Below, piece by piece: positions 8,411-40,234 of a DNA stretch of 64,000 nucleotides; position 1 is the first letter of the stretch; the number at the start of each line of letters is the position of its first letter. The position numbers and the translations under genes were made by a program. Source of the stretch: Marsupella aquatica. Its lineage: Eukaryota; Plantae; Marchantiophyta. The notes below the pieces were generated by a model. It ran no database searches and was not told the DNA's origin. It saw only the letters and a program-made list of their open reading frames with translations. The stretch is from contig OZ316896.1 of NCBI GenBank assembly GCA_973895155.1, positions 21,393,543 through 21,457,542 on the forward strand, given 5' to 3'.

Positions 8411-8460
8411 GATCACTAGCAAAAGACTGATCACTAGCAAAAGACTGATCACTAGCAAAA
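8411..8460. repeat. 18-bp tandem repeat (about 3 copies)
   Basis: gatcactagcaaaagact x ~2.8. Confidence 0.8.
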
Positions 8461-10569: not shown

Positions 10570-12365
10570 CTTCCCTTGTGTCAATTGATCAAGCGGGCCG
10601 GTGCTGCTGCTGTCCCTCGGTCATCACTATTCGCAACAAATGCCAGTCAGAACAAGGACCTGGACCAGGCAGGAACTTCAGATAATAACCAATTGATTGC
10701 TGTTCAAATCAATCCTCTTGTGTCCATGTAAATGGTCAGTTTCAAAGTGAAGCAACACAGCATGGCAGTTAAGAATCCCGTTACTGCAGCGGCAGAAGGT
10801 AATCGGGAAAATAGCATCCTGCATTGGCTTCCTTAACAAATTAATTAAGAGATTGAAGTGCTTGAATTTTCCAACAGTCTAATTATCTTCAACTCGTCCT
10901 CAATCACTAGCGTTGGTCGAGTCACCAATCCTAAGGACTGACTCCCTCAGTGTTTCGTCAGAGAGTCCAACTGATTGAGATTGATAGCATAGAAATGCAA
11001 CGACTTGAGACTGGAGTCGATGTGATTATGTCTTATCCAGTGTAAATAACCTGAATGATCAAACTAACAAGCATGATATTAAGATGATGAATACAAAAGC
11101 TTTGAACTCTCAACCTGAAATCCAACGCCAATAGAATGGGTTGACGGAACTTCTGGACGTAATGATGAAGTTACATCCCTCATCATCACCTATTTCTTGT
11201 GAAAGCAAAATATGAAAATAACCCAATCATGAAAAGAAAAAAAGAAAAAAAGGTTCACCTTCCTAAACATCGTTGTACGTTCCAGGAGTTTGTTCGGCCG
11301 TGATTCCGTGAAGATGAATGTCATCAACACCTCTAGAAGTAAAACTAGGAAAGGTTTCCACTCAATGACTCCAGCCGCATTAATACAAGAGGTTCACCGC
11401 ACTTCCATGGCCCATACATATGTAGGAAGGGAACCAAATGATCTTAACTTTGATATTCCGTGCCGCTTGAAACGGCGGTGATATACAACTCTCTGCTGAA
11501 AATGAAAACATCCTTCGTGACAAGTGCAGAAATTTTGGTACTGGTCGTGGGACGAACTGGCTGCCTACTTTTGGACTTCCATGCTCGGATTTGTTCACTC
11601 GAGCAAATACTAAAAGCAAACCAAAACAACATTCATTGGAGCTCTTGATCTCTTGCGCAACACAATAATTGTACCTTTGCCTCAGACAAAGGCTAATCGC
11701 AGACCGAAATCCCAGGAAAGGAAATCCAGAAAGGACCGTCTCTGCATAGCCTGGGTAACTGGATTATGCAGGACGTAATATCTATGGAGGGACGAGGGCG
11801 CAGAGATGTGAAATGGATTGGCGCTCATAAATGCAAACCAATCGGGCAAGAAAAAGCCAAAAAGTGCAATTGTATCTTACCTGCTGTGAACCATCAATCT
11901 CTTGAGCTCTAGGTGGAGCGCCGCTGACAAACAACGACCCGCTTCTCGGCCTCCTTCTCCTACATTCAATTCGAAACAAGATGCTTCTGGCTATCTACCA
12001 ACTCTGATTCGACTCTGCTATGTGTGAAACGCCAAATCCATTAATATGGGTGAAGCTGCAGACCATAAATCTAAGTAAAGGTCAGTTTAAGTTTACGTCC
12101 TCCACAAACAACAGCCTTTTGCATCAAAAGTGACAATGCTATTATCCACACATTTGTGGGCAATGTGTGGCAAAGGAGGGGCGAACCTAGTTCTTTCCGG
12201 TCTAGACATTATTGCCTATCATGCCTATCAGAGAGATACTTGATGGACCACCAAAATGCAAAGTGTTTCGTGATGGACCCATGAGTGATCCAGACCATTT
12301 GTAGATCCCCAATAATTGTGCCCAAAAGCTCATGGGGTTCATCAAGTATATCTTTCCAAACCTAT

Positions 12366-17405: not shown

Positions 17406-20043
17406 ATGGGTTCGATCCGATTCGCTGGAGCAGCAGCTTCAGTGACAGCTCCCATATGTATTTTGGAGCATAATGCAAGCGGGCGGTGTAACTTGAAGAG
17501 CTCGGCTCTGTTCGGAGCTGGCTTGGACTTACCGATCTTGAACGCGAAGAATCGCTGGTCGACAGAGAGGTTCGCCTTCCAGACAGGTGGAGTAGCTCGT
17601 GCTGAAGGATCCGGGGAGGCAATTCCACAGTTTCCTGCCAGCCATAGATTCAAAAACGCCGACTTTGCATCCTTCGAGCAATTTCGACTTGCCAAAAAGA
17701 ACAGTGAGTATCTATTGTTGCCCATTCATGCGTCATGTAGTCCAGCTCTTGTTTCTCGACAATGACTCTCTTCTTCCAGTCATGGACGACGTCGGCCAGC
17801 ACTTTTCCCTTAATACCGTCAAATAGCCTCTTCATCCATGCATAATTTCTTTTTGGATTTTGGGTATAAACTTTAGCCTCATCATCCATTCATCATTTCT
17901 TTCTGGATTTTGGGTATAATCTTCCCCTGAAGGACAATGAAAAATAAGGATTCGTTCCTGCTTGACACTGCTCAATTGCCATTCAATTAGAAAGCACTTC
18001 TGGCTGGATTGCGTGTGAAGCTACGGCAAGATTGCTTTGTGAAAGGAGGCCGATGAGGTCCATGTCTGTACGAGCTACCTGTGGTGCCAGAATTTCCCTT
18101 TCGGAATCTGCCGTGTGCCTCCGAAGTTAGTTGGGCTTTGGTGTAGGGTTTTGGCCTTCAGCATTGGCTGTCTTCCTGCATGGTTGGTATGGTAGTTGAT
18201 GGATGTTTTGATTGGTTGAGGGCATGTTGTGAACGTTTTCGCTAATTGTCTCTTCTTGTTCAGTCAGTGGACATGGAATTGCTAAGGGTGGTTAGGAGCG
18301 TCCCTCTACCGACCTTAATACACTTGCATCTGGCATTTCATGACCAATTTTTTCGGGTGATATGCAGGGTACTCAAATGTCAAAAGCAGTATCATTGTTT
18401 TGGGACTGAGCGTGCACACTGCACCGGTATCAATGCGAGAAAAGTTGGCAGTTCCAGAGGCAGAGTGGCCACGAGCCATTGAAGAGTTATGTGAACAGAA
18501 TCACATAGAAGAGGCAGCCGTGCTGAGCACATGCAACCGTATGGAAATCTATGTTGTTGCGCTTTCTTGGAACTTAGGAGTACAGGAGGTCATTCAATGG
18601 ATGTCAAAGGTAATTTTGCACTCCAGTGATTCGTTGCGGAGTCTCGTGTTCATTGAATTTAGTCCTGTGCTTGGATTACTTGGCTCTCAGAAATGTTCTA
18701 GATCTTTACTCCTTACCTCGGTTCCATGGCATGAGTTTTCCTGAATGTACCGAGAAAGTCCGGACCCTACTCTTTTCCCACTCAGTGGTGACACTATTGT
18801 GCCACATACACTCGTTAGACATCACTGTAGGTAAACAAATGTCCCAATTAGATTTTGACGTTGTGAACTTATAACTTATAGTTCATTGGCACTGGGCTAC
18901 TGGATTGCGCAGACAAGCGGAGTCCAACCTCAAGATCTAAGGGAGCATCTCTTTGTGCTGCGTGACCGGGACGCAACACAGCATCTATTCCGGGTATCAT
19001 CAGGGCTGGATTCTCTTGTACTGGGTGAAGGCCAGATTCTCGCCCAGGTGAAACAAGTCTACAAAGTGGGCCAGTTAGCTCCGAAATTTGGACGCAATTT
19101 GAATGGGCTCTTCAAGCAAGCCATTACTGCCGGCAAGCGCGTCCGCTGTGAGACCAGCATTGCTGCGGGTGCTGTTTCTGTGAGTTCAGCAGCAGTTGAG
19201 CTTGCTGTCATGAAGCTTCCCCAGCAGGCAGTGGCAAGTGCTAACGTTGTCATTGTTGGGGCTGGAAAAATGTCTAAGCTGCTGGTGAAGCACCTGATCT
19301 CCAAAGGTTGCGATAAGATTGTGGTTGTTAACAGGTCAGAGGCGAGAGTATTAGATCTTCAAGCTGAGTTTTCAGAGGCTGAGCTCACATATCAGCCCCT
19401 ACCAGAGATGATGAGATGTGCAGGGGAAGCTCATGTCATATTTACGAGCACTGCTTCTGATGTTCCTTTGTTCTTCAAGGAGCATGTCGAGCAACTTGCT
19501 CCACCGTCTCAAACCTCGAATGGCATCAGGCACTTCATAGATATTTCAGTTCCCAGGAATGTCAGTACTTGTGTGGCGGAAGTGGGATCAGCACGGGTTT
19601 ACAACGTTGATGACTTGAAGGAAGTGGTTGAGGCAAATAAGGAGGAGCGCAAGAGGAAAGCCATTGAAGCACAAGCAATCATTGAAGAGGAGATGCAGAG
19701 TTTCGAATCTTGGAGGGATTCGCTGGAGACCGTACCCACGATAAAAAAACTGAGATCTTACGCAGAGGGCATTAGAACCTCCGAGCTGGAGAAATGTTTC
19801 GGAAAGATGGGAGATGATTTGACGAAGAAAAATCGCAGGCTCATAGAAGACCTTACAAGGGGCATAGTAAACAAGCTGCTGCATGGACCCATGCAACATC
19901 TGAGAAGCGATGGAACGGATGTGAGGACCGTAAGTGAGACTTTGGAGAATATGCATGCTCTGGAAAGAATGTTTGATTTGAAGTCCGATATGGCTGCCCT
20001 TGAGAAGCAGTTCAGGTCTGCTGAACAGCAAGTCAAACAATAG
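17406..20043 (+). CDS. HEMA: Glutamyl-tRNA reductase, plastid-targeted, 3 exons
   Basis: Exons 17406-17703, 18368-18609, 18913-20043 with GT-AG junctions and matching phases. Motifs [42 protein letters not shown] and DISVPRN; N-terminal transit-peptide-like extension. Confidence 0.96.
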
Positions 20044-21360: not shown

Positions 21361-21739
21361 TAGCCTTACCAACTGCCTCGAACAGTTCTGTCCACCCACT
21401 ACCAGAGACGCACCCTGTTAACAATGGGCTTGTATCCGGCACTACTAGGCACCCCCAATGGCAGTCAAACCCTCAGTCCAACCATTAGCCGATTTACCTG
21501 TTGCGTCACACATTGTAGCTTAGACCACTGTCTACCCACGGAATGCAGGTTACAAGTGTGTAACCATTTTGGAGGCACTTGCTATTCTCATAATCTATTT
21601 TCTGGACAGTAATTATGCACTAATGGAGGTCTGGGTAGAGGTTCTAGTCTGAACTTTGCTCCAGGAAAGCTCAAAACAGCTTCCTAGTTGCCGCCTATCA
21701 GGTTTTCTTCACTTTCTGGTCACAGGGTTACAAGCTAGT

Positions 21740-22083
21740 TGTTAGATATTGCTCTAGTATTGTGACTCTTGTGCTAACCACAGTTAGGCTAACTCGGGTT
21801 AGGACCTAGCTAAGGTTAGCGGTAGTGCTGTTGTGCATATAGCTAGGGCTGATGCCAGACCCTGGTGGAACTTAGGCTCATTGTTACGGAGCTAGTTGAG
21901 AGATAGGGAGAGCTTGTGATGTGGATGCTTGGTATGGCCGGTCGGCCTAGAGTGCAGTAAAGCTCTTGTGTGTTCCCGTGGACGTAGCCTCATGTGGAGG
22001 TGAACCACGTATCTCTCTGTGTCGACTATTGTGCGTTGGATGCTTCATGGGCTTGCCGTTGCGAATGTCGTCTATGCTCATCA
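21740..22083 (+). repeat. 5' LTR (344 bp)
   Basis: tgttag...ctcatca; I count 7 substitutions against the 3' LTR by eye (about 98% identity). Confidence 0.95.
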
Positions 22084-22085
22084 AG

Positions 22086-22097
22086 TGGTATCAGAGC
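22086..22097 (+). promoter_or_regulatory. Primer-binding site complementary to the 3' end of tRNA-iMet
   Basis: TGGTATCAGAGC, 2 nt after the 5' LTR. Confidence 0.95.
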
Positions 22098-23594
22098 ATG
22101 CCTGGGAGGTGACGAGGTTTTTTCATGACAGGTTTTTCCAGCATTCATTGTCGATGGTACATTCGGAGTTTCGTCGCATGAAACTCAAATGTATGTGGTT
22201 GTGCGGATAGGTTAGTGAGAGGGCTTTCTAAAGGTGGTTAGAACTCGTTGATCGGTATCCGTGGTGCGGAGGATTTGATGTTTGCATTGTTCAGGGTTTA
22301 TTCGTGTTCGACGGTATTTCGGGGGAGAAACCAGAGATCGTTTCTTCAACGGTGTGAGCTGTGCGGTGTGCGGGGCGTCGCATGTGATAGTTCAAGTTGA
22401 AGGTTGGAGCGTGCTGGTCATTTTGGTATCTAGTTTGCTGACGTTTGCGGAACGAGTGCGTCGTGACGAGTGAAGGAGGCGTTCTGATTTTTTGACAAGC
22501 TATGGTGCTTGTTTTTCCCTGAACCGGATTACTCGTCGTGACGCTTGACTCGGAGGAAGAAATGCAAAGTGCTGAGGCTCAACGGAGAGATCATGGCGAG
22601 AGGGTCGTTTTGAGTCCGGGATTGGCACTTGACGCGGAGTGAAGGCGACGCAACAGAAGTTCTTTCTCTGGTGGAGCTTCAGACGGCCGGTGTGTGCGTG
22701 CCGGTGCAATTCGAAACATTTTCATGTCAGCGGTCATCACTTTTCTCATTGGAAACCAAAGCGGAGGCGGCTGAGGTTTGTAACACGGCCTTTGTGTCAT
22801 TTTGGGCACATTTTTAAGGTTAGTTTAGGGCATTTTTTGCCCCAATACGGCCCCAATACCCGACAAACCAGGTTCACCATACGCCCCGGCGTGCACACAC
22901 CGGCCTCCCACACCCCTTTAAGCGTGGAAACGTGCTTTTTTGGGCCCAAATACGACCAAAAACGCCCATATACGGCCCAAATACGCAAAAATACGCATGT
23001 TTTGACCCCTTTAAACCCATTTTCTCACGTTTTTTGCTGTTTATACGCGATTCTGGCCGCGACTACGCGTGCCTTTGCCCCTTTAGAGTGTGTTTTTCTG
23101 AATTTATTTTTTTCTCTCCTCCTCCTCATTGGTTGTGCCTCATCCCGGGCCCTGTGACCCTCCGTTTTAACCGCTCCGACAGGGGGAACGGCCCCCTGTG
23201 AGCCCTGTTGGACTGTGCGGGAATATTCCCAAAAAATCAGAGAGCTCTTTTTTGGCCGTCCGACAAAGATTCCGTCCACCGAACGGTAACTTTTTTAGTT
23301 CTTTTTCGGCAAGGACGTTGCCACTGGAGTTAGCAACACGGCGCACCGATCACATCGCGATTCCGATGACGGGTTGTACTTGGTATTTTGGTTATTCTCC
23401 GAGGTGGTCAAAACGGGGGAGTTTCCCAAGGTTTTACCCACCTTGACCGAAATTTGAATAAATTTTCTGTCGAATTTTGATTTTGATTTTGGCTTTCAGT
23501 ATTGGACTCCTAGCTTCGTGGACTACGCGGCGGTGTTGAGTTTTGAGTTTTATGAGAAGTTTCGAAAAAAGACATTTTTTCGTGATTATTTCAT

Positions 23595-26500
23595 ATGAGT
23601 GACTCGGAGGATACTGGAAGAATTGGCGTCGGTGGAGCTTCAGGATCGCGACGATCAGACGGTGAGTCTGAGGAGGAGCTGCTACCATTTGAGGAGGAAC
23701 TAGTGATTTCGGTACGATCACTGGTGCGGCGTGCAGTGAAGGAAGCTGTGTTACTACCAGAGCTGTCGATAGTAGGGAAGAAGAGGGAGATGGCTAGATT
23801 CGGAGGAGTAAAGTTTGAGGTGGAGAAGTACGATGGTCGTACTGATTACTTGCTATGGGAGAAGCAAGTGAAGGGTGTTCTACGGGCCATGGGCTTGGCT
23901 CATCTGCTCTCTTTGTGAGAGCAGTATGATGGAGAGGAGGAGATTTCTTTGAGACAGTGGAGACAGGAGCAAGTGATTGCTGTCAATTGCAGTGATGCTA
24001 TATCTCAAGCCGCACATCATCAAGCAACTGGATGATTATGCAGATTGCATGTCACTGTTCAAGGCTCTAAGAGAGAAGTACTACCGGGAAGATGCGTTAG
24101 ACCGGCTGTACAAGAAGTTTCTCTTGATGAGCCTTAGGCTCAAGGAAGGGAGCAAGATGCAGGATCACCTAGATGAATTTGACAGCCTAGCGGTGGATCT
24201 GTCAAACCTGGGAAAAGGAGTTGAAGATGAGGATAAGGCCTTGCTTCTGCTAAGCTCCTTACCGTCGTCTTATCAGGGCTTGAAACAGGTGCTCTTGTAC
24301 AGAGATTTGAAGTCCATTTCGTATAATGAGGTGGTGAGCTCATTACTGTCTGATGATGCTCAGAAGAAGCTGGGTCAATCACAGACAACATCTTCTTCTG
24401 GCACTGCGTTGAATGTGAACAGGGGAAGAGCAGCGCAACGCACGAATGGGCAGAACAGGTTTAGATCTACATCACGGGGGAGATCTAAATCCAGAGGAAA
24501 ATTGCAAGAGAGGAAGCCTCTTGCATGTTGGAATTGTGGCAAGCCTGGCCACATGAAAAGGGATTGTCGAGTAAAGGTCCCTATTGCCTCTGCTAATGCG
24601 GTATCGAGCTCGCATGAGGTAGATTTACTTGATGATGATGACATATTGTGATATCAAGGTTATGCTCTCAACGTAGTGTCAAATCCAGGTAGTGATGACT
24701 GGATTCTAGATAGTGCATGTACTTTTCACATTTGCTCTAGGAAAGATTGTTTCAGTTCTTACACGGTTTCCAACGGGTCAGTGTTGATGGGAAATGGAAT
24801 CCCATGTCAAGTTGTTGGACTTGGATTTGTAAGATTTCAGATGTTTGATGGTGTTGTGAGAACGTTGAGGAATGTGAAACATATTCCCAGCATGATGAAA
24901 AATCTCATTTCACTTGGAGTTTTAGAGCAAATGGCCATCAGTGAAGCTCTGCTAATGGTGTCCTTCAGGTTTCAACTGGTACTAAAGTTGTATTGAAGGG
25001 AAAGAGACATAGCAATCTATACGTTTTGGAGGGCAGTGTCCCGGGCAGTGTAGTTTGTGATGAAGCCAATGTAACCTTATCTCATGAGGAGACGGCCCGG
25101 CTGTGGCACTTCCGTTTGGGCCACATGAGTGAAAAAGGTTTGGTTATTCTTCAGAAGAAAGGATTATTTTCTAATTTGCAATCTTGTAAGTTGGAATTTT
25201 GTGAGCACTGTGTGCTAGGAAAGCAGCACAGGAAACCCTTCGGAGTTGGAACTCACACCAGCAAGGAGGTACTTGAGTATGTACATAGTGATGTGTGGGG
25301 TCCAGCCCCTACTCCCTCATATTCTGGACGGTTATACTATGTCACGTTCATAGACGATTACTCAAGGTATGTGTGGATATACTTTCTACACAATAAGTCT
25401 GATGTTTTTGCCACTTTTAAGGAGTGGAAAGCCCAAGTTGAGAATCAGACTGGTAATAAGGTGAGATATCTTCGATCGGATAATGGCGGTGAATATAGTT
25501 CCGGGGAATTTGGAACGTATTGTAAGGAGCAGGGGATTACCCGTCATCTCACAACAAGTTATACTCCTCAACAGAATGGTGTTTCTGAGAGACTCAACCG
25601 AACACTATTGAACCGCTCGAGGAGTATGTTGAGTCAATCATGCTTACCACATGAGTTTTGGGCTGAAGCTATCAACACTGCAGCTTATTTGGTAAATTTT
25701 TCTCCATCCAGTTCTATTGGATTCAAAACACCATTTGAAATGAGGTACGGGCGTCCAGCAGATTACTCACATCTGAGGATTTTTGGATGTGATGCTTATG
25801 TGCTTACACCTTCCCAACTTCGATCCAAGCTGGAGTCCAAGTCGAAGAAGTGCATTTTCCTTGGTTATCAGTAAGGTGTGAAGGGTTATAGGTTATGGGA
25901 TCCAGTAACCTGTAAGCTAATTGTCAGTAGAGATGTGTCCTTTAATGAATCCAGATCATCAAAGGAGGGGGAGAGTTCTCAGGACTCCCATACTGACAAG
26001 GGGAAATCTCCCATCCCGGACCGGGTTGAGGGGGAGATTAGTCATGATGCAGTTCATGACAGGAGAGATGGAGAAGCTCCGGGCTTGGAGCTGGTTCCTG
26101 TGATGGAACAAGAGGAGCAAATTGTTGCTGAGGTACCTCAAATTCAATCAGCAGCAACAACAGATCAGCCTGAGTCGTCTACTAGAAGAACTTCCAGTCG
26201 TTCTACTAGAGCTCCTACCAGGTATGGTCAATGGGCAGACTCATCTAAGCTAGATGATATTGACATTGCACCTGATGAAGATGATATGGCTTTGATCTTG
26301 GAAGAAGGAGAGCCTTCTTCGTATAGTGAGGCTTGTGCTTCAGAGCAGAAGCATGAGTGGAATGCAGCAATGCAGAGGGAGTTGCAATCTTTGAGTGACA
26401 ACAAGACATGGGAGCTGGTGGAACTTCCAAGAGGTCAGCAAGTGGTGGACAGCAAATGGATTTACAAGTTGAAGGATAGTCCTTCAGAGGGTGGAGACAA

Positions 26501-26864
26501 GATCTACAAGGCAAGGCTTGTTGCCAAGGGATTCACTCAGGAGAAAGGAGTGGATTACAATGAGGTCTTTTCACCGGTTGCTAAGTATTCCACAATTCGG
26601 ATCTTGTGTCAGCTTGTTGTGTTTTTTGGTCTGGTGATGGATCAGATGGATGTTGTTACTGCTTTTCTCTATGGCAACTTGGAAGAGATGATCTTCATGA
26701 GACAGCCACTAGGCTTTATGAAGAAGGGCCAAGAGAACTTAGTTTGCAGATTGCTCAAGTCCTTGTATGGATTGAAGCAGTCTCCCAGACAGTGGAACAA
26801 GCGGTTTGATGATTTCATGCTTACTCAAGGTTTTACAAGGATGGTGTATGATCCTTGTGTGTAT
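23595..26864 (+). pseudogene. Copia gag-pol, 5' part (gag, protease, GAG-pre-integrase, integrase, N-terminal RT)
   Basis: KFEVEKYDG..W, zinc knuckle CWNCGKPGHMKRDC, protease WILDSACT, integrase HxxLGH..CEHC, HSDVWG, LRSDNGGEY, PQQNGVSER, and RT KARLVAKG, QMDVVTAFL, KSLYGLKQ. Frameshifts near 23915 and 24930; in-frame stops at 24649 and 25872. Confidence 0.93.
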
Positions 26865-26899
26865 ATCAGCCTATTCATTAAAAGTGTATTATTATTTGA

Positions 26900-27225
26900 T
26901 TTATGTACATTTGGGCAATGAAAAGTGTACTTTTGGGCTTGAAAAAATGTATATTTGGCCAATGAAAAGTGTACATTTGGGGATAGAAAAGTGTACAATT
27001 GGCCTAAAGAGTGTACATTTGGGCAATGAAAAGTGTATATTTGAACATCAAAATAGGTACATTTGGCTTTAAAAGTGTACATTTGAGTACATTTGGCCTA
27101 GAAAGTGTACATTTGAGTGAAAAAAACATACATTTGGCTTAAAAAGTGTACATTTAAGTGCATTTGGTCTAGAAAGTGTAGCTTTGAGTGCAACAAAGTG
27201 TACATTTGGCCTAAAAAGTGTACCA
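26900..27225 (+). repeat. Left subterminal repeat array (AAAGTGTACATTTGG, ~22-bp period)
   Basis: More than 12 copies of aaaagtgtacatttgg-like units next to the left TIR. Confidence 0.9.
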
Positions 27226-27470
27226 ACTCTTCTTATAATCATTTAAAAGAAAGGAATGAATAGAAAAATATTTTTAATTATGCAAAAAAAGTAAACATTC
27301 ATATTCATAACAATCAAAAGTTTAGAAAATGAGGAGATAGTATAACTAACACTCAATGGCATGGTCTCACATTAAAACTATTAAAATAGTAAATAACTAT
27401 TAGGTACTTGTTACTATCTAAGTAACTATCTATTTAATAATTATTATAGCTTCACAAGTAACAACTAAGT

Positions 27471-30400
27471 CTACTTGTCCATCCTTTGGAGATAACTTTG
27501 GATAGTTTGTAGAACATTTCGAGGAATCTTCAAACCTCTGCCCGCCATGTTTTCTTCTTTCATGCCAGATTTAAAACCATACATTGCAGAATTTGCATAC
27601 TGCCAATGTTGAGCGTTCTCACCAAACCCTGGATCTCGCTCCCATGTCTTAGTGGACATGAAGCAGTTTAGATACCGTGCACTCTCAGTCACATCAAGTT
27701 TAGAGTGTTTAGGCCTCCACCATTCGACTGGAAACATTGGAGCATATTGTTGAGGCAGAGGAGGGTTTGTTGGAGATGTAGTTGGGACTTCATGCTTAGG
27801 GTCAACCGAACCCAAAGCTCTCACCAACCAGAAATGACCTCCACCATTTTTATTCTCCCAGTCATCCTCGGGTCGAAGAAATACAAAGTTCCCTTGACAA
27901 ATATCCTGTAGGGGAATCCACCGTCCTTGTTCTCTCTCAGCTCGAGATCCAACAAATGGTGCCGCTTGATCTTCCATCTCTTCCAAGACCTCATTTTGAA
28001 GAGCCGTCATCTCCGCATTCTCCTCATCTTCACTTGGAGGACCACTTTGATCCGGTTGGTTGACCTTGTAACTAGTGCCATGGTTAGTCTTAGGCCAAAA
28101 TCTATTTTCAAGGGAAATTGAGTACTTCCCTCCCCTTCTAGGGCAAGCCCATTTGTCAACAACTCCACAATTCTCTCCCAATATTTCACAAGAGGAAATT
28201 TTTCCTTATATGCTATAGATGTCTCATCAGTGCAACTCCTTCTCAAAAAATCAAGGTACTTGGTAAGAAATGGGATAATCTCTTCAGATTTTTTGTGTAT
28301 CTCTCCAATGGATTTAGCTAAGGGCTCTCCACTAGGTAAAAGAAGGGAATTTGTTGTCAGATCTGTTGCCCAAATGCACCTTCCACCAACTGGAGCCCAA
28401 GCTTGCTTTACATGGGACTTATACTGAAATATTGGTACATTATCTCTCATAGAGAAAAGAAATGATACAGGTTTTGAGTGACCTTGAATATCTTTAACGT
28501 TGAAAGTTTGAAGATATTCTTTGTAAGATGCAACTTCTTGTATCAATCTGGGAACTGGATGAATGCTCTCACATTCCCAAACCTCTGCCATAAGAGCAAG
28601 GAGAGTTGCAACTTCCTTGTGCTGAACTTGATATGATACCTTCGAAAAGAGTGCATCAACATCTTCGTGCGTATGACCAACCATAAGAAAAGACATTTGA
28701 ACAGTTTCAAATACTCCTCTACTCACAAGCTCACTACAAAATGCCATGACAGTCTGGTTTTTGTTATCCTTTGCTGAGTTATCCATTTGCAATGTTAGGT
28801 GCCTTGGCAAGGGCTTGAAAGATGGACTGCCTTGTTCCCCATGCATGTCCCCTCCTTGATCCTCACCAAGTTGGGTGGAGACCGTCTCCGTCTGACTCTC
28901 GGCTGCATCTTCAGAACCAATATACCTATTCATTGGAATACTCTTTGGTTCCAAATATCCCTTAAAAAATGCATCAAAGTCAAGAAGGGCTTGAAAGAAA
29001 GGTCTATGAGGTTCCAAATAAAGGCCATCCAACATGTCACCTGTCTTGTCTCCATTGTACTCTTCAAGGTCTCGAAGACACTTAGCCAAGGATGTCACCG
29101 TGAAATCGGCATCTCCTGGCCAAAGGCCAGTGACACTAAAGTGTGCATAGACTCCTGGATCCCTTCCGTGGGTCAACATCCCTGTCAAAGCAATAGGTAG
29201 CGGCATCCCATGACCCGAAAGCGATTTAGGAGTACTAACCATTTTTGGAATCCACGTCTTTGCTTGATCCATCTTGTCGTGAATGATGCAAAGATATTCC
29301 CCTGGATGTTGCTTAGCCATCACTCGATGAGCATAGTAAACATATCTACGTGACATTTGCTCACAAAGATGTTGCGCTCGTTTTTCTTCAATTTCAGCAC
29401 GTTCTTTTTTCCTTCTTTCTCGCATCAAACTATCTTTGTATTCACAACAAAGAGTACACTTGGCAAATGCACCATCTTTATGGAAACTGAAGTTTGCGAA
29501 TGATTTGCTCCAAATCTTGTACAGAGTATTCTCTATAACTGGAGGAAGCCCCTCTTCCTTCATCTTTGTTCTCACATCTTCCAAAATCTCCAGCTTCTTG
29601 TAACATGCTGGAAGACGATATTCAGTGGAGTCTGTCCCATGAGCCCCAGCATAAGGTATATGAGGCATGGGCTCTGCATTTTGAGTCAAAAAATCCTCCA
29701 ACAGAGTTCGTGCATGCAAGGTATTTGACCTTGTTTTCATGGAGCCCGTGTTTCCATGGAACCCAATTTTGCAGCCCTCCACATATCTCCTTTTGTAGTC
29801 ATAATATTTTGTGTGGCTAAAGCCATGGATGATTGCAAATGCATGTCTACATACGACCATACCCTTGAGAACATGGTGCCCCTTATCACGAACATCATCT
29901 TCTCTGTAGTGGAAGAGGTTGAAAATGTGTGATGTTTTTGACTCACTAGACATCCCGTGAAATTCTATCCGAATATCTTCTATGTCTTCTCTTGGCATAG
30001 TCAGACAACATTTCTGCTTGCAACAATTCTCTCTTTTAATTTCATCAATCGAAGCTTCCGTTGTTTTTGAAACTGCCTTGGTTTCCAATAGCCTTCTCTT
30101 CTTTTCAATCGGATCTACATGAGTCCTCTTGTTGAAATTGTATGGCCTTGTGCGCAACATTCCCCTATCATTTACATTTGGATAGAGATCATCCCTATCC
30201 ACCGACTCCATCCTCTCTGAACCTTCAACCAAAATGTCCGACAAAAATTTCCCATTTGCAAGTAGTTTTGTTGAATCAATTCGCCACCGAACCAAAGTAA
30301 TTACTCCCCTATGGAAGTTGGGAAAGTATTGTGATTCCACCACATCTTTCACAGCAATCCCTACATGGTCCTCACCAAGCATTTCATCGTCAACTGCCGC

Positions 30401-31230
30401 CGTTTCTTGAGGCACAGTGATGGTCCCCGTGGCAACCCTATTGGTTCGATCTGAACCGATGTATAGTTCGACCAACTCTGACATCCAATTTGACCGTTGG
30501 AAATAGTCACAATTAGTTTTAGAAATTTCAACTGAGGGAGACTCCACAACAAAACTCCGCTCTATGTTGATATCATCACCCGCATCCTTTTTTGAGAAAC
30601 TCTTTCTACTTCGGACATCTGCCACGTCCCAGAGAACCCATGAGTCTTTTGCCTCGTCAATTGTTTCAGCCCCACTGTGTTTGTAAGGTAAAACCCTACT
30701 CCCATGAATGACATCAGTGACCCTCACACTGATCCGTGATTCACCAAGTAAAATGTTGTGACATCTTTCCATTGGATTTGTATTGAAAACAACTCCAAGG
30801 GCTACACAACACCCAAAGATGAACATTTCAACCTCATCCCCTTGCCTCGGAGTGATCGATGAGTCCTCCTCTACAATTGGATTTTTCTCCAAATTACTCT
30901 CGGGTCTATTTGAACAACTACCTACACTAATGCATTTTTGAGAATTTGTTGTCGTGGATAGATATGCGCAAGACAAATCCCAAATAACGCAAGAATCAAT
31001 GGCATCAAAAAGGTTTTCTGCCCGAGGCATCGGAAATGGTAGTTTTGTGGTTCGGTCAAAAACTTTCTCAATGAGAACTCCCATTCGATTCTCTCTCAAC
31101 AATATCTTTTGAACACTATCTTGCGGGTTGACTTTTTGAACTGTCCCGCTCGCAACATCGTAACCATCATTTGTCAATATCACATTGTCTCCTCTCAAAA
31201 ATATTCCGGTCATTGCTATAACGTATTCAC
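27471..31230 (-). CDS. Sola-like (DUF7869-type) DDD transposase, frameshifted near 28110
   Basis: ORF 28007..31213 plus continuation 27471..~28110. Cys motifs CCKQKCC, VCRHAF..HG and KCTLC; catalytic-core motifs HDKMDQ, LQMDNSAKDNKN and FLMVGHTHEDVDALFS. An acceptor-like site at 31231-31232 implies an upstream exon. Confidence 0.85.
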
Positions 31231-31405
31231 CTGCACAATTTTAAATGTAAAGTATTAGTTAAGAATGGTCCCAACTAGGAAGCACATAGGTGTCAACCCT
31301 CTCCAAGGACAGTGCGCATATCGGGATTATCCCCATCAAGCAAAATAATAGGTCCCCAAAAAGTCCCTATCTAGCCCTAAGATCCCTGATCCCAATTTAG
31401 ACGTC

Positions 31406-32080
31406 GGATAGGGATGATCCCTGTCCAAACGGTGGACAGGGATTGGACAGGGATGATCCCTGTCCAAACGACGGATAGGGTCTGTCAGTGTATAAATGGC
31501 GAACAAGGATCATCCCTACCTAAACGGCGGATAGTGTCTGTCACTGTCCAAAAGGCGGACACGCCTGATCCCTGTCCAAATGGTGGATCGGGTCTATTCT
31601 CTGTCCAACCAACTGACAGGGATGATTCAAGGAAACTTTTCATATTGGGGTCCAATCAAGCAAATACCTCAAACGGCGGACAGGGATCATCCGGAGAACG
31701 ACCGCGGACACGGATCCCTATTGAAAGGGTAGATAGGGATCATCCCTATCAAAACGGCGGACAGGGACCATCCCTATCCAAACGGTGGACAGGGATCATC
31801 CCTATCCAAATGGCGGACAGGGATCATCCCCATCCAAACAGCGAATACGGATCATTATCCAACCAGAGGATCCAAACGGCGAATACGGATCATTATCCAA
31901 CCAGAGGATCCAAACTGTAGAGGATCCAATAAAGTGCTATAGTTCATATGGTCCTCTACAGTACTCTACGGTGGACAGGGATCATCCCTATCCAAATATT
32001 GGACAGGGATCATCCCTATCCAAACAGCAGATAGAGATGATCCCTATCCAAATAGCAAACAGGGATGACCCCTGTACGGA
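31406..32080. repeat. Array of 21-bp palindromes with 28-bp period
   Basis: GGACAGGGAT(G/C)ATCCCT(G/A)TCC plus a 7-bp linker (AAACGGC-like). Copies start at 31406, 31445, 31473, 31501, 31529, 31557, 31585, 31678, 31731, 31759, 31787, 31815, 31973, 32001, 32029 and 32057; some are degenerate. Confidence 0.93.
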
Positions 32081-33001
32081 CAATTGACTCTACACACTAA
32101 TTTAATGTTTGAGCAAAGAACGGTTGGATTGAGATTATCCCAATCGTGAGTTGGGCTGGGATTTTTTCACTTCAACCTTAACTTAGATATAGTAATTCCT
32201 AAATTTGCGGATATCAATGGAATATGCTACAATTCTATAATTAGGTTTAAAGTTACCTGTAATGGAAATGATTCTTGAACCCAAAACTCAATTTAGTTTA
32301 TGTTGTCAAACCAAGGATTAAAATACTGTGTTGAAGGGGTAGTTATCAGTAACCTGGTAAACTAAATGCTTCAGGGGTGTGGAAGAAATTAAAACTAGAT
32401 GTTCTGTCTGGAAAACAAGAGTGTCTCAATGGGGCTCCGTAATGAACGGACCTGGTTGAGGAACAGAACAAAAATCTAGAAATGAAAATACCAAATGAGG
32501 ACCAGCCGGACAACCCCAAGTATCTTATACCAGTTGTTGAAGATCGCCCTTATGGATAAGGCGATGCGTGATCAGCCTTAAGCAACGGCGAGTGGATTAG
32601 GTCGGGCGGCGCACTTTAGGGCAGCCGTGCATTTAGGGTTTTCCACTCGCCTCGGCCTCCCACGTGTTCAGTGTGCCTTGCCTCGCCTCGGGGGGGGGGG
32701 TAAAGGAGGCAGGAGGTCCCACTTGGGCCTCATTCTTCATTCCCTCCTCGCTCCTCGCTCACTCTCCTCCTCGCTTGCTCTCCTCCCTCCTCCGTCCGCT
32801 CCTCCTCTTCTCCACTCCTGCTCTTGCGCTCCTTTGCTCGCTCCTCCGCCTCATTCGCTTCCAATCTCCTTCCGCTCCGACGCCTTTGCACTCCTTCGCT
32901 TTGCCTCCGCACTAAAGTTTATCCCCATAGCCGCCACGTTAATTGCCCTAGATCTAACGCTCTGCAATCCTCCATGTGTCCATAAGGCCACGTGTCACAC
33001 G

Positions 33002-36000
33002 ATGGAGCCATCCAGACCTATTCCAATGTGTCTCGTCAGTGAGCCAACAGAGGAGACAGACCTCTCATCCATTGAGGACGTGGTGGAGACGGCCCTCAAG
33101 GATTCCAGAGCCTTTCAATCGCTCAATCCAAGTGAGTATCCCAGTAACAAGTTGAATATTTGTGTGGTGGACAGAGATGATCCCTGTCCAAGTAGAGTCC
33201 AAATAGAAGATAGTCATCTTTATTAGGAATTGGACAAAGATGATCTCTATCCAAATGGATGGAGATCATCCCTGTCCAATTGCATAGATATCATTTATTT
33301 CCAAACTGACGATAGAGGATGTCCTATCAGACGATGCTGAGGACCTTTATTAGGAATTGGATAGAGATGATCCCTGTCCAAGTAGAGGATAGAGATGATA
33401 ATAACGATCATCAGTATCCTCTCATCGAACAGAGATGATCTTTATTACAAATTGGACAAAGATCATCGCTGTCCAAATAGAGGATAGAGATGATCACTGT
33501 CCAATTTTTGTCAATTACAAAAGTAAGATTTCCAAACTAATATGCCTGGATGGGACTATTGCAGGGAGCTATCTAAATGCATTGAAACCACAGATTTCAG
33601 ACGCAGATTGCTCTGAGGGAGTCTTGTTGGAGCAGAGCAGAGAAGATTTTTGTTGGGGCCTTGAGTTCTCCAGAGTTGATTTTGATTTCCTTAGCACGTC
33701 AACGAGACGGGATCCCATTTTGTGCATAAAGGTCAGAACTGCAGATCAGGAGACTCTTGTACTCGGACCTGTAGTCTTCATTGGAATTGAAGGAAGAGGG
33801 TTTGTTTCCGTCATTCTTGAGCTCCATGAAAGGATACGATGGGTTAAACTACATCTACCATCAAAGGCGTATTCTTCAGAATTCAATGTTGAGTGGTCTG
33901 CAGCTGGAGAACTTGGCGTGTTGGCAATGGGCTTTTTCCCTAAGTCGTATTCAACTCAAAAGGTGACTCTTGGAGTGAAGGGGATTCTTCCACTTGACAT
34001 CATGTATGGGTTTCAATATGTGAAGCTTAATATGCATAAACACCAAGGGAATTATACATTTTCGGTGACATGGATTTTAAATAATTTGCTTGACAAGGCA
34101 GGATTCCTATCATCGGAATCAGGTGTTTTCCTTGACAAGAAAATTATATTTGCGGAGGAGTTTGCAATGGATAATGCAAAAAAGTGGGTAGAATCATTAC
34201 CCAAGCCTACAAGTGCTGCACCAATAGTGGTGAACAAGCCTACAAATGTTGCACTAGTAGTGGTGAACAAGCCTCCAGTAGTTGTTAACAAAGAAGTTCC
34301 GAAGCCTAGAAAAATATCTCAGGAGACAACAACCGGGACTGCAGGAACAACGGCCGGGATAGCCTCCAAACAAGTGGTAGGGAAGCAAAGACAAAGAGAG
34401 AAGAAGGAGCGCAAGAAAACTGAGACACTGCCGAAGGAACCCGAGAAGAAGCCAGTAAAGAAGAAACATAAAACTGACAAGACTATTGCGCGGTCAACTC
34501 CGACGGACGTACAGATGCTCCCAGAGGATGAGGGAGACAAACTTGATGCCCCGGAGGAGAAGAAGGTCTTAGAAGGGAATGATGTTCTCCAAAGAATAGA
34601 GCAGTACTATACTTTTGGGATAAATTAAATATTTTCTATTCCAGTGGAGAAAATTTATCCAGCTCCGGCAAGGTTATGTTACAGGATGCTCAACAGTGCC
34701 CATGTGAAGCACATAGCCGAATCCATGGTGAAAAACCCTGGACATGAACCTCACGTTGCGGACCTTCTTCCTTACAATCCAAAACTTAGAAATCTACTTC
34801 ATTTTGACAGCACGGAGAACGACCGCAAAGACCTTCTTGCAGGAGTGAAGAAAGGCGAGATTGTTTTCCTTGCCGTCAGTGGGCAACATTCTGCTAGGGC
34901 GGCCAAATGGGTTCTTGAGTGGGCCGAAACGGATGCCAAGCTCACAATTTTGGCAAAAAAGTTAAAATATAGGAAGGCTAGATTATTGTCAAACCTTACG
35001 CCATCGGCTATACTGGTTGAGCACTCAATGAGATCAAATGCCATCAATTCTTTGATGGTGTTTCAATCGTGCTTCAAAGATACAATTGTTCATGCAAGAA
35101 AACAATTCCTTGAAACTGGAAGACCAAGAAAGCCAAAGCACGGGGACAACAAATCAAACGCCCAAGAGAGTCAAAAATTTCAGGTGAGAAACATTTTTCT
35201 TGTTTGGACAGAGATGGTCTCTGTCCAAGAGTGTGACCGTCCGTTACATTGATTTTAGTTCAATATGTTTTTGGTTATGACTTGGATGGAGATGGTCTCT
35301 GTCCAAGAGTGAGACCTTCCATTATGTAGATTTTACTTCATTCTACTTTTGGTTATGGCTTGGACGGAGATGGTCTCTGTCCAAGAGTGAGACCTTCCAT
35401 TCTGTAGATTTTACTTCATTCTACTTTTGGTTATGGCTTGGACGGAGATGGTCTCTGTCCAAGCAAGCGATTGTGTGTTGTCAAATCTCATTGATTGTAG
35501 ATAACTTACAACATTCTCCCTAATTTTTGACTGTAGGATTATCTGGCATTGGCAAGGATGACCATGGGGAGAAAAGACTTGAAAAATGTATACTGGTTAC
35601 TTTTTGCCGAGAATGATCTTTTCGAGTTATGGCGATTAGTGTGCCAAATGTGGATTGATGGAAAACTTCTTGATGGGGGTGGTACACAGGGAAACAAAAG
35701 GTCCGAAAAGGCGATAACCGTCGCCATGTTTTGTTATTTTGATGGTGAAATCTCAAATAGAGATTTGACCAGAATTTTGAACAAGGTGAAGTCGGGTCAG
35801 ATTTTATTGAAAAAAGATCCGACTAATAAGTCAGATGTTCCAGCGATGGAGGAGTTTGCAAAGGAGGTGAAGATATTGATCAAATTGAAGTCTCGTATTG
35901 GAGATTACTACTTCAAGAAGGATCCAAAACACTTCCCAGCAGATACTGATTGGGCTAAAGTGATTGAAGTCCTCCCATTATTGGGTCCCGATTCGGAGTT

Positions 36001-37906
36001 GAACAGGTGCCGAAGAGCAGCTGGCGATGTATGGTTGACAAATTTGTTGAAGTCGAATCATACAAAGGAGAGTGAGATATTGCCAATGACATTGGTGATG
36101 CATCTAGATGATATTTACTGTCAAAAGTTTGGCGGTGGGACAAGTTCTCGGACCCAGCCGTGGGTCACATTTTTTAGTACCAACCTAATGAAGACTGTGG
36201 ATCCGGAGTCGTTGGAAGAACAATCTCCAACATGCCCTCTTGCAATTGTTGATTTCAGCCGACTTCAGCAAAAAGAGTGGACTGAAGTAGAGATTTTGGT
36301 CCTCTTCCAATATATAGTAGAGCTACCACGGAATCCTACCATTGTTGTGATGATAACTGTCCATCCGGGTTATCTTGTACTGAATGTCCTAAGCGCTCTT
36401 CGTAAATTAGGACATTCAAAAACTCTGAGTATTCACATTGAGTATGGGAGTTATTACCGAGATGATCAACCTCACCCTCAGGACTCATGTTGGAAGGGAG
36501 GAATAGAAGAGGTTATCTTTGCCGGAATTTCTCGCGAGGAGAACGTCAGCTGGGATGAAGTGTTCAAGCCCAACCAAATGAAGCCAAAATGGGTGTACGG
36601 TGAAAAGGATATTGATTTCGTGGTTGAGAAGGTCAAGGGAAAGGGAAAGGCCAAGGACGCGGAGGAGGAGTCATTGCATGAAGATCTAAAAAATATGATG
36701 ACCCCAGAAGAGGCGGCAATCCTTTTGCACATGGCACCTCGATTTGAGACTGTCGGCGCTCGGGGTGGGTGGGTGAATCCTCACGCCAAACCCACACGGA
36801 TGATCCAAAAGATCATCCAAACACTGTCCGAGCTGGGGGATTTGATTCTTGACTTTTTCTCTGGCGGTCAAGTGATGAAGGCATCCCTTTTTTCTCAACG
36901 TGAATGTTTTGTTTATTGTGACTCTCAACATGAGAGACATTTTGTGGAAGCATACGCTTCGTTCCTTTGTGAGAAGGTTCCCACCATCAAAGATCGTTAT
37001 GATCGCTATGTCGGTGGAAGTTCTAGACATTGGGAACCCTCTTCTGCCGCTGTTGCTATTGAGGATGAATCAGATGGTGATCAAGAAGATGGAGCTGACC
37101 AATCAGTCAAAGACGATGGGCCATCAGAGGCATACGTGAAGAATTTGGATGACTGAGTTGGCGAGGGTGAAAATATTGACCTTGTGGACGACGATATGAT
37201 TGTTGGATCTGCACCTTGTAGTTCACCAATTACAGATGCTGCCCCCATGGGCCCCAACGAGGGCCATTATGATGATAACTTGGATAGAGATGGTCTCCAT
37301 CCACAAGTGCCTGGACAAGAGATGGAAGTTGATACTTTTGAAAAACTTTCTTCAAACAACCTTCTCAATCAAGGTGCGGAGAGGCATGGTGAGTCCAATG
37401 AACTCGACACATTGGGATTGAGACCACAGCCCATCCAAATAGCTGACATTCCCGTGAATGAAGCAAGTGCATCCACGACTGCTGACAACCAGGCAGGTGC
37501 TTCAATTTGTCCCAATACACTCTTTTCCGCTTCTGATGACAAATTGGTGTTTGTTCGATCACAATCAAGAAGTCCCGTTATCCTTCCACTCTCAAAAAAG
37601 AAAGGGAAGAGAGTAGGATCAACTGGATATAAGTCACTTGAATATGATTGTCAATGTTACGTGTGGAAAAGTGGACCCGATGTAGGAACTGAAGTTGCGT
37701 TGGATGTTGCTCAATCAATTTTGAACAATGACTCGTACAAAAAGCACAAGAAAGATCCAACTTATAGAAGTGGAGAATTGGGATTGATAACTCCGGTTTG
37801 GTCTGCACCTTATTGGGTAGAGGAGAGTACCTCCGATGTCAATTATGAGATCCAACAAGAACTCGGTGATGATATCTTGATTGATGAATATGGATCGCAT
37901 TGTTAG
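33002..37906 (+). CDS. Transposon cargo gene: ParB/Srx-like domain fused to a beta-class N6A/N4C DNA methyltransferase-like domain (two premature stops in this copy)
   Basis: Proposed exons 33002-33131, ~33601-35183 and 35537-37906. Intron 35184-35536 is GT-AG with phase 0 at both ends; the first intron's acceptor is less certain. ORF pieces on either side of TAA 34626 and TGA 37154 are in the same frame. ParB-like segment: R.LN..HV..IAESM..NP...FLAVSGQHS..AA. MTase-like segment: NPHAKP...QKIIQTLSELGDLILDFFSGG..MKAS...R. Confidence 0.72.
33169..33503. repeat. Second cluster of the 21-bp palindrome (inferred intron 1 of the cargo gene)
   Basis: ggacagagatgatccctgtcc-like copies at 33169, 33232, 33257, 33359, 33387, 33454 and 33482. 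Confidence 0.88.
35206..35462. repeat. 4 x 78-bp tandem repeat, each unit carrying the palindrome variant (intron 2 of the cargo gene)
   Basis: ttggacagagatggtctctgtccaa-like copies; palindrome cores start at 35206, 35284, 35362 and 35440. Confidence 0.9.
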
Positions 37907-38529
37907 CCAAGGTCTAGATTGAGCGATGTGACCTTATCAATTTGATATAATATAGTCTGTATAATTATACTTCAAGTTTAACAATTAGAGCATCGTATAT
38001 GTAGTTTACGTCCTGAGGCAGAACTTGACGATGCACTTGTCACGTCACTTGCTAAAGCATTTGTAGGAAGGGACTATTCAGGTCCGCATAGAGAAAATCC
38101 CAGACACTTTTTGCGAGAGATTATAGCCATTAGGAACAACACCACCAAGTTTCAGCTCCTTGAAGATAAAGGGACTTGCAACCGTGACACTAGGGTAGAT
38201 AGTAAAGGAGACAGGGGCACGTGCTCAAATACACATTGTAAGGAGCACTTTGTTTAGAGATATGACTCATGTTAAGCCCCTTAGATAGAAGAAATACATT
38301 GTAAATTTGGAGATAATTGTATATTATTTTATAATCTATTTGGAGTTATGTCATTTTGTTCACACATATTCAAGGGTTTATTTGTGATGAAATGTTTTTA
38401 TAAGTATGATCTCTATCCTACTATTCTTTGTGAATTCATAAATAATGATCTCTATCCTATTATTCTTTGTGAATCAATAAATGATATAATATGTATTATT
38501 TATTAATATAATACTTATATGATTTGGCC

Positions 38530-38612
38530 TATAAAGTGTACATTTAGAGACCAAAAAGTGTACATTTGGGTTTCTTAAAGTGTACATTTGGGGACATGAA
38601 AGTGTACATTTC
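38530..38612 (+). repeat. Right subterminal repeats (AAAGTGTACATTT x4)
   Basis: Four copies next to the right TIR, on the same strand as the left array. Confidence 0.88.
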
Positions 38613-38666
38613 AAGACTGATTTGTGAACAAAAGAAAATACACTTTTAATGAATAGGCTGATGTAT

Positions 38667-39683
38667 ACGAAATCAGTCAAGAATGATGTATTTGGTTTCA
38701 TCATTATGGTTATCTATGTGGATGACATGTTGATTGTGGCTAAAGATCAATCTGAGGTTGACAGTCTCAAGGCGAAATTGAGTGTTGAATTCATGATGAA
38801 GGATCTTGGTAAGGCCAAGAGAATCTTAGGGATGGAGATTTTTAGGAACTCTGAGACTGGACAGTTGTGCTTGAGTCAAGGCCAGTATGAGAGGAAAGTA
38901 CTTGCACGATTCAACATGGAAAATTGTAAGCCAGTGAGTATTCCTTTAGCTTCACATTTTAAGTTATCATTGGCTTTCTCTCCTACGGATGCTGTGGAGA
39001 AAGGTCTGATGGCTAAGATTCCTTATGAGAAGGCAGTAGACAGTTTGATGTATTTGATGACTTGTACTAGGCCTGACTTGGCCCTAGCGATGGGCAAGGT
39101 TAGCAGATTCATGTCAAATCCATGGAAGATACATTGGGAAGCTGTGAAGTGGATTCTCAGGTATTTGAAGGGAACACATGACTATGGATTACTATTTGAT
39201 AACAGATCAAATAGAACGTTAGTTGGCTATGTAGATTCTGACTATGGAGGCTGTCTGGATACAAGGAGATCTACAACTGGGTTTGTATACACTCTTGGAG
39301 GAGGATGTATCAGTTGGAAATCTATCTTGCAGAAGTGCATATCTCAGTCTACTACAAAAGCAGAGTATGTTGCAGCAGCAGAAGCTGCAAAGGAAGCAAT
39401 TTGGTTGGATAAGTTGATCGCGGATATGGGTTTAGAGCATGGAAAAATGACTCTAAACTGTGATACTCAGAGTGCTCTTCACTTGGCTGCTAACCAGGTG
39501 ATGGATAGCAGGGTGAAGCACATTGATATCAAGTACCATTTTATCAGGCAAGTAGTGTCTGATAAAACTTTTGAGCTAGTCAAGATTGATGGAAAGCTCA
39601 ATCCCGCTGATGCTTTTACCAAAGTGATTCCTTTGGAGAGTTTCTCAAGACACCGTGCTACTTTGCAGGTTTTGCAGTTGTAG
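38667..39683 (+). pseudogene. Copia pol, 3' part (RT catalytic YVDD and RNase H)
   Basis: IYVDDML, MKDLG..KRILGM, TRPDLA, GYVDSDYGG, RRSTTG, CDTQSA and KHIDIKYHFIR. Confidence 0.95.
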
Positions 39684-39879
39684 TGCAAGTAGAGTTATTT
39701 AGCAATGTGTGACTATTTGTATATGGATTACTTATTCCTGTTAGGCTACAGCTTAGTTCTAGTTAACCCTTAGTTAACCCTTGTGGTTTTTAGGGGGAGA
39801 CCTGGTTTGGTGATTGTCTAGAACTTCCCGCTGAGGATTCCATATGGTAGCATTTAGTCCAGTCCCCAAGACAAGAGTC

Positions 39880-39890
39880 AAGGGGGAGTT
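39880..39890 (+). promoter_or_regulatory. Polypurine tract
   Basis: AAGGGGGAG(TT) immediately before the 3' LTR. Confidence 0.9.
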
Positions 39891-40234
39891 TGTTAGATAT
39901 TGCTCTAGTCTTGTGACTCTTGTGCTAACCATAGTTAGGCTAACTCGGGTTAGGACCTAGCTAAGGTTAGCGGTAGTGCTGTTATGCATATAGCCAGGGC
40001 TGATGCCAGACCCTGGTGGAACTTAGGCTCATTGTTACGGAGCTAGTTGAGAGATAGGGAGAGCTTGTGTTGTGGATGCTTGGTATGGCCGGTCGGCCTA
40101 GAGTGCAGTAAAGCTCTTGTGTGTTCCCGTGGACGTAGCCTCATGTGGAGGTGAACCACGTATCTCTCTGTGTCGACTATTGTGCGTTGGATGGTTCATG
40201 GGCTTGCTGTTGCGAATGTCGTCTATGCTCATCA
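39891..40234 (+). repeat. 3' LTR (344 bp)
   Basis: tgttag...ctcatca, near-identical to 21740-22083. Confidence 0.95.

Follow-up and report, generated by a model that had tools for sequence, protein, structure and literature searches.

ParB-methylase accessory genes have been described in Sola1 and Plavaka elements of algae. In Ectocarpus, the element Sola1-1_Ec32 is described as harboring a 1104-amino-acid (aa) ParB-methylase gene opposite its transposase gene, green and red algae are said to have similar proteins, and binding and modification of its own element were proposed for the accessory protein (PMC12477816). In Bostrychia, the Plavaka accessory gene PAG2 is reported to combine N6_N4_Mtase and SET, and PAG3 to combine ParB and a 2-oxoglutarate (2OG) oxygenase, and the inverted-repeat arrays beside the ParB-type PAG3 were proposed as binding sites (bioRxiv 10.1101/2025.02.11.637652). 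Phage ParB-methylase loci and inactive methylases borne by DIRS elements are also on record (PMC4738411), as are the VANC proteins of VANDAL transposons of Arabidopsis, reported to bind tandem motifs of their own elements (PMC5735166). Here we describe a gene with ParB-like and methylase domains in the liverwort Marsupella aquatica, located in a stretch of 64,000 nucleotides of contig OZ316896.1 (positions 21,393,543 to 21,457,542, forward strand). The whole stretch is called the window, and positions are counted from its first nucleotide. Our preferred interpretation, to which we give a probability of roughly 0.55, is that this is a broken copy of an accessory gene of a DNA transposon bounded by terminal inverted repeats (TIRs), whose intact copies likely code for a spliced protein with ParB, helical and likely inactive methylase parts, which likely binds 25-bp palindromes and favors expression or mobility of the element against silencing.

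Organization of the accessory gene

The gene lies on the plus strand, divergent from a minus-strand transposase gene within one TIR element; like transposon ParB-methylase accessory genes, it combines a ParB-like with an amino-methylase domain. An earlier reading, made from the sequence only, had confined it to 34644..36990; it is larger, extending upstream to at least ~33594 and downstream to 37906, with two in-frame stops. A putative first exon (33002..33131) starts with an ATG at 33002 and ends before a donor GTGAGT at 33132, the acceptor being uncertain, near 33564 or 33600. It is followed by an N-terminal region (33594..34625), composed of a domain without Pfam match and a basic linker, which is in the frame of the ParB part and homologous to the family proteins P0006 and P0008, and by a premature in-frame stop (34626..34628) across which relatives align. 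Downstream come the ParB/Srx-like domain (34629..35183), a phase-0 GT-AG intron of 353 nt that holds a 78-bp tandem array with four palindromes (35184..35536), an all-helical linker domain of ~200 aa, seen in the secondary structure of the model and given no fold by the structure search (35537..36140), the predicted beta-class (permuted) amino-methyltransferase fold (36141..37000) and a second premature in-frame stop (37154..37156), across which P0002 aligns in one frame. An acidic linker and a conserved C-terminal domain ending in DEYGS form the natural gene end (37157..37906; blastp to P0001, P0002, P0005 and P0018, E<=6e-10). Both the N-terminal region 33594-34200 and the C-terminal region 37450-37906 are conserved, and neither has a match in Pfam.

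The proposal of the sequence-only reading that a phase-0 intron joins two open reading frames (ORFs) stands. The donor CAG/GTGAGA (35183/35184), the acceptor TGTAG/GAT (35536/35537) and a branch-point-like CTAAT (35520-35524) are present, and seven natural proteins read through the same junction (P0002, P0035, P0099, P0100, P0108, P0011 and P0109). For example, the junction reads SRFQ-DWQVLAK in P0002 of Calypogeia fissa and SQKFQ-DYLALAR here. Five of the seven are Calypogeia or Riccia gene models, which may be ab initio predictions, and two are uninterrupted ORFs on ENA contigs of 4.5-5.5 kb, including P0109 (1009 aa), which carries ParB, methylase and C-terminal end in one ORF. Four further ORFs terminate 3-17 residues past the donor position. 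From these features we infer that 35184-35536 is spliced. The copy in the window is a pseudogene, given two in-frame stops that relatives read through and a frameshift in the transposase gene.

The methyltransferase domain

The two exons were folded separately, as an alignment in one piece misplaced ParB fragments, and the models exclude the junction. The third-exon model (predicted local distance difference test, pLDDT, 85.7) shows ~200 helical residues and then a beta-class amino-methyltransferase, a permuted Rossmann fold with motif IV before motif I. In VIA structure searches it matches CcrM with Z 17.6 (root-mean-square deviation 3.4, 215 residues aligned), 11 beta-class enzymes score above Z 14 and unrelated folds reach at most 5.2. 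The best Foldseek matches are CcrM, RsrI and PvuII (E 2e-8 to 4e-7). Moreover, a family profile finds M.RsrI at E=2.4e-10, and the window ORF matches N6_N4_Mtase at E=5.5e-5, below Pfam's cut-off. These comparisons argue strongly for the predicted beta-class fold, which had been proposed earlier from NPHAKP..IIQTLSELGDLILDFFSGG and from a motif I of the form DFFSGG; the former is present in the ORF 35537-37156 and the latter starts at 36851.

The position of motif IV is occupied by LAIVDFS (36239-36259), continuing as DFSR, and lacks [DNS]PP[YF], as had been noted before. The loss of this catalytic motif is family-wide: the motif IV column has Asp in 36 of 39 sequences and PP in none of them (0/39), and [DNS]PP[YFW] is absent throughout 106 family sequences (0/106). 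In motif I, GxG is found in 0/42 sequences and the DFFSGG start in 24/42. In bdelloid N4CMT, activity is reported to be abolished by mutation of SPPY (PMC8885841). Judged by its motifs, the methylase domain of the family quite probably transfers no methyl group. A methylase still active through the non-canonical loop DFSR, writing N4-methylcytosine (4mC) or N6-methyladenine (6mA) on its own element, seems rather improbable to us. It would fit the retained motif IV Asp, the Lys of the KP motif (kept in 31/32), the DFFSGG start and the conservation of the whole fold, and a variant loop, DLPF, exists in such cargo (metagenome locus L040, below). However, 39/39 sequences lack both prolines and the aromatic residue, RsrI has one residue more in its S-adenosylmethionine (SAM) loop, and only 18/39 have D as the acidic residue following the next strand.

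The ParB/Srx-like domain

The model of the ParB part was built from nine sequences and has a pLDDT of 78.8. Its best eight VIA matches (Z 5.0-7.2) are to KorB, ParB-N, PadC, SerK, Srx, SbnI and Atu1540, with KorB, ParB-N and PadC at Z 7.2, and unrelated folds reach at most 3.6. In addition, the Atlas ParB_N cluster score is 0.90 for 34629-35183. The structure search thus lends moderate support to the ParB/Srx fold that had been suggested from a pattern ending in AVSGQHS; this pattern is present at 34872-34892, and SGQHS, or SRQHS in one case, replaces GxxR across eight relatives. A ParB N-terminal fold of the accessory protein is likely from the model, if not certain. By sequence, nothing significant for ParB was found for the window ORF in Pfam, NCBIfam, PHROG models or PDB sequences, and P0008 gives a weak match to DndB (E=0.052). 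A helical region follows the ParB part in the model and, by eye only, possibly continues a helix-turn-helix (HTH) of the ParB type; no HTH profile matches were found in fused relatives.

The Atlas clusters nearest to 34629-35183 come from eukaryotes, namely Basidiomycota, Porifera and Ascomycota; in the Ascomycota cluster 31% of members have DUF3723, a hint that DUF3723 may be a ParB-like mobile-element protein. No paper containing both terms was found in a literature search pairing DUF3723 and ParB.

Palindromes and subterminal repeats

A 25-bp palindrome, TTGGAYRGRGATSRTCYCYRTCCAA, is present in 21 copies between 30178 and 37304, with none outside the element in the window and none in 100 shuffles. 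Nine copies lie in the spacer between the divergent genes, six at 33167-33504 in the putative first intron, four in the intron between ParB and methylase, and two in coding sequence. A separate 22-bp repeat forms subterminal arrays near both ends of the element, in the same orientation on the plus strand, with nine core hits on the left (26904..27223) and four on the right (38528..38611).

The transposon and its insertion site

The element is a Sola-like TIR DNA transposon of ~11.8 kb, delimited by its inverted repeats, an empty site and its flanks. It spans 26865..38662 with a 4-bp target site duplication (TSD) GTAT, or 26866/38661 with a 6-bp TSD TGTATA, both lengths being compatible with this single insertion. 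The TIRs (inverted repeat I7) lie at 26865..26898 on the plus strand and 38629..38662 on the minus strand, and bound the element as in Sola (Sola1) DNA transposons; with the TSD included, the pair 26859-26898 / 38629-38668 is 88% complementary over 40 nt. The host sequence is a Ty1/copia retrotransposon (21739..40189, plus strand), whose reverse transcriptase (RT) is split by the 11.8-kb element. The empty copia site was recovered in 4/4 runs from two studies, in contigs that join 26859 to 38662, skip 11,802 nt and share six letters. The copia long terminal repeat segments differ at 5/300 nt, and the two stops and the frameshift fit decay after insertion into a copia that is ~1.7% diverged, by estimate. 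Variant contigs on the element number hundreds to thousands in each run, which indicates a multi-copy family.

The transposase (27474..31240, minus strand) matches DUF7869 (PF25273, E=1.6e-43) and is frameshifted near 28100, as found by a two-frame tblastn. The acidic motifs HDKMD, QMDNxxKDNKN and GHTHEDVD are conserved in an alignment with homologs, of which 90 were found, and are typical of a cut-and-paste transposase. Its filing under Sola1 is probable, by the parallel with Ectocarpus. By eye only, its motif layout resembles the Sola2 alignment of PMC3627910, where a TSD of 4 bp is given for Sola2. The N-terminus of the transposase (30170-31240, minus strand) looks internally repeated, and many transposase relatives carry PF26133.

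The sequence-only reading had regarded the gene as integrated in a eukaryotic genome. The intron-joined fusion in eukaryotic DNA stands, but it is the cargo of a TIR transposon and a pseudogene copy, and hence no host gene that has become integrated. A host methylase acquired horizontally and then domesticated, as DN4MT1 of Marchantia, would share the fold class and a liverwort host. This explanation is hardly credible and was rejected, being largely refuted for the window copy, which lies inside TIRs in a copia RT, belongs to a multi-copy family, is broken by stops and has no TSPPY. Bacterial contamination was also rejected, on account of the intron, the copia context and the plant host genes of the window.

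Relatives and linkage in other genomes

All named relatives of the cargo are from liverworts, in Calypogeia (up to 58% identity) and Riccia. Open relatives are 901-1009 aa long, and from the window of M. aquatica to Calypogeia and Riccia the family keeps its architecture, intron position and motif columns. In Riccia, 2/11 family loci are no more than two gene numbers away from a DUF7869 locus among the 45 listed (P ~0.004, assuming 26,500 evenly spread loci and an incomplete set of transposases). No close relatives were found in the viral contigs or prokaryotic genomes searched and, since no close prokaryotic donor was found, any transfer from prokaryotes would seem to be ancient.

Family profiles gave no match in 80/80 metagenome loci with related transposases; a positive control on the window passed, and many of these contigs are too short to contain cargo. 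A single-protein scan of the metagenome contigs returned 113 pattern matches, 0 of them related, and a TIR/TSD search in 32 transposase loci gave no usable end pair. Two loci with cargo were found by Pfam searches on 89 hand-picked ORFs of the 210 listed, together with a motif scan of all 80 loci. In the first (L071:708-4283, minus strand, and 4645-6764, plus strand), an ORF with OTU, ParB and methylase forms a divergent pair with a DUF7869 transposase. Its 1191 aa comprise OTU, a ParB region (DGMHR; GmrSD_N, E=0.007; Atlas ParB_N 0.92) and a methylase with DPPW; judging by that motif, it would represent a catalytically intact counterpart in a eukaryote. In the second (L040:2360-5746 and 6743-9466), an ORF with N6_N4_Mtase (E=1.5e-7; DLPF loop) and SET lies upstream of a DUF7869 transposase, which is the architecture of PAG2 on a Sola-like element. 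The N-terminal methylase part of L040 is similar to that of L071 (0/500 shuffles), and the similarity of the window family to L040 is marginal (0/300 shuffles, hhalign probability 16%). In architecture, both loci agree with the gene of the window.

Other possible cargo was seen in these searches. A divergent ORF coding for an FCP1/NIF phosphatase lies beside the DUF7869 transposase of L015. An ORF at L077:6190-7356 (contig L078 looks alike) contains, by eye, the C5-methyltransferase-like words ELWSG and PVC without any Pfam match, and two long ORFs of no known family also lie upstream of the DUF7869 transposase of L077. Finally, P0081, a gene model of Riccia sorocarpa, has a degenerate methylase and, after it, an FCP1/NIF phosphatase domain (E=2e-13), perhaps a second cargo gene that annotation has merged in.

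Proposed role and alternatives

We propose that intact copies would make one spliced protein in which ParB and a helical domain precede a methylase domain that is likely inactive. The first two parts would recognize the 25-bp palindromes of the element itself, a contact with DNA or with a modified base would be added by the dead methylase fold, and binding would help the element to stay expressed or mobile in the face of host silencing. An active ParB-methylase that marked its own element was probably the ancestral cargo, and the part of it likely retained in the liverwort lineage is the scaffold, as a module for binding DNA or reading methyl marks. Both the binding and its outcome are drawn from the analogy with PAG3 and VANC. 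On this ground we lean towards an accessory protein that binds the palindromes, and put forward an anti-silencing or activating outcome, like that of VANC, as a tentative suggestion. A more specific scenario, which we consider doubtful, is a prokaryote-derived anti-silencing machine with two pseudo-enzymes, carried by liverwort Sola-like transposons, in which ParB would load at parS-like palindromes and the dead methylase would read or shield C or A, possibly as the 4mC or 5-methylcytosine (5mC) that liverworts deposit, protecting the whole element from host methylation.

Several observations weigh against the proposed role. No spliced joint was present among the joints listed from four runs, in which introns, spacer and flanks are covered as in DNA and which are silent on expression. 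For the ParB model, Z 7.2 is within the range that VIA calls common, which makes the match moderate, and the Foldseek lists consist mostly of ParB/Srx proteins that are each weak (best E=0.016 against PDB, 0.003 against BFVD, none at E 0.001). The GxxR arginine is replaced by Ser in 8/8 relatives (SGQHS in 7/8, SRQHS in 1/8), so the cytidine triphosphate (CTP) clamp may be lost. The L071 cargo shows no significant sequence similarity to the window family (equal or higher scores in 26 and 14 of 300 shuffles), and 9/11 family loci of Riccia are not beside a DUF7869 locus among those listed. Furthermore, arrays of the palindrome GGTGGCCACC surround the DUF7869 transposases of L015-L017, L044 and L070, loci in which family profiles detected neither ParB nor methylase, so that the palindromes could be bound by the transposase. 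Finally, in a test for purifying selection on the rows listed, synonymous changes between copies (16/41 vs 11.4 expected) give P=0.08.

The palindrome arrays near transposases without detected cargo, and the cluster of palindromes directly upstream of the transposase gene in the window, would also suit a protein that serves transposition, in end pairing, transpososome assembly or target choice, with no epigenetic role and with the transposase possibly binding the palindromes. A transposase is expected to bind at element ends. The palindromes are internal or intronic, whereas the separate 22-bp array sits at the ends, and related cargo has the chromatin-type domains SET, OTU and FCP1/NIF; we consider this role unlikely. 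Likewise, the synonymous-site count, the two stops of the window copy and the fragmentary state of many homologs could mark a neutral passenger, or a relic in decay, that does nothing for the element. The conservation of architecture, intron position and motif columns as far as Calypogeia and Riccia, with long open relatives, and the recurrence of the layout in algae speak against it, making a functionless gene very improbable.

If the scenario of an anti-silencing machine with two pseudo-enzymes is true, VANC would have a second counterpart of unrelated origin, and land plants without flowers would have their first such system. The family brings the ParB-methylase cargo design into land plants, with the 25-bp palindrome as a concrete candidate target. 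Its long-conserved loss of the catalytic motif separates binding from writing and, if the dead version was kept across liverwort classes, binding or reading would be the useful part.

Other features of the window

Two coding regions of host genes were identified, for a polyphenol oxidase (8869-10620, minus strand) and a glutamyl-tRNA reductase (18859-20043, plus strand). A pair of perfect 34-bp inverted repeats separated by 1.2 kb lies at 59150-60426 and is possibly a miniature inverted-repeat transposable element (MITE).

Comparison with known systems

The sequence-only reading had compared the gene with horizontally acquired 4mC methyltransferases of Marchantia and bdelloid rotifers. This comparison is misleading, as DN4MT1 and N4CMT are described as host enzymes that keep TSPPY/SPPY and have no ParB, whereas the window protein has no (T)SPPY, is transposon cargo and includes a ParB part. 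A permuted fold with motif IV before motif I is common to M.CcrM, M.RsrI, M.PvuII, MboIIA, bdelloid N4CMT, Marchantia DN4MT1 and the window protein (Z 15-17.6), but these enzymes keep [DS]PPY and are active, and share 9-15% identity with it. The structure of bdelloid N4CMT (Z 15.1, 13% identity) does not come closer than those of the bacterial enzymes. With the ParB/Srx superfamily (KorB, PadC, Noc, Srx and SbnI) and the phage ParB-methylase loci as described in PMC4738411, the gene has in common the predicted N-terminal fold and the fusion or linkage to an amino-methylase; unlike them, it has SGQHS in place of GxxR, and the viral and prokaryotic sequences searched yielded no close relative.

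VANC resembles the present system in being transposon-encoded and in having repeated target motifs in the non-coding DNA of the element, but belongs to Mutator-type elements, has a function that was shown there and is inferred here, and homology is not expected (PMC5735166). The proper comparison is with the ParB-methylase accessory genes of algal Sola1 and Plavaka elements. PAG2 and PAG3 are likewise transposon cargo with ParB and PF01555 and with inverted-repeat arrays beside the ParB gene, and the ParB score of PAG3 is weak too (HHpred E 0.29), but ParB and methylase are described there in separate genes of EnSpm-type elements, whereas here they are fused on a DUF7869 element (bioRxiv 10.1101/2025.02.11.637652). 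Sola1-1_Ec32, as described, shares a large TIR element and a gene for a ParB-like and N4-cytosine/N6-adenine (N4C/N6A) methylase protein opposite the transposase, and the insertion here is compatible with its 4-bp TSD (PMC12477816). The present element differs in its land-plant host, its length (11.8 kb vs 21.5 kb) and its termini ((A)TCAGCC vs AACCG) (PMC12477816). Moreover, its catalytic, SAM and GxxR motifs are degenerate family-wide, while the Ectocarpus element is compared by its description, in which the catalytic status is not stated (PMC12477816). No report of this cargo in land plants was found in the literature searched; supplementary Table 6 of the Bostrychia preprint may bear on its novelty. 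The gene described here, in a broken copy, represents the ParB-methylase accessory gene of Sola-like transposons in a land plant, in a form that is apparently a pseudo-enzyme; the general design is already published.

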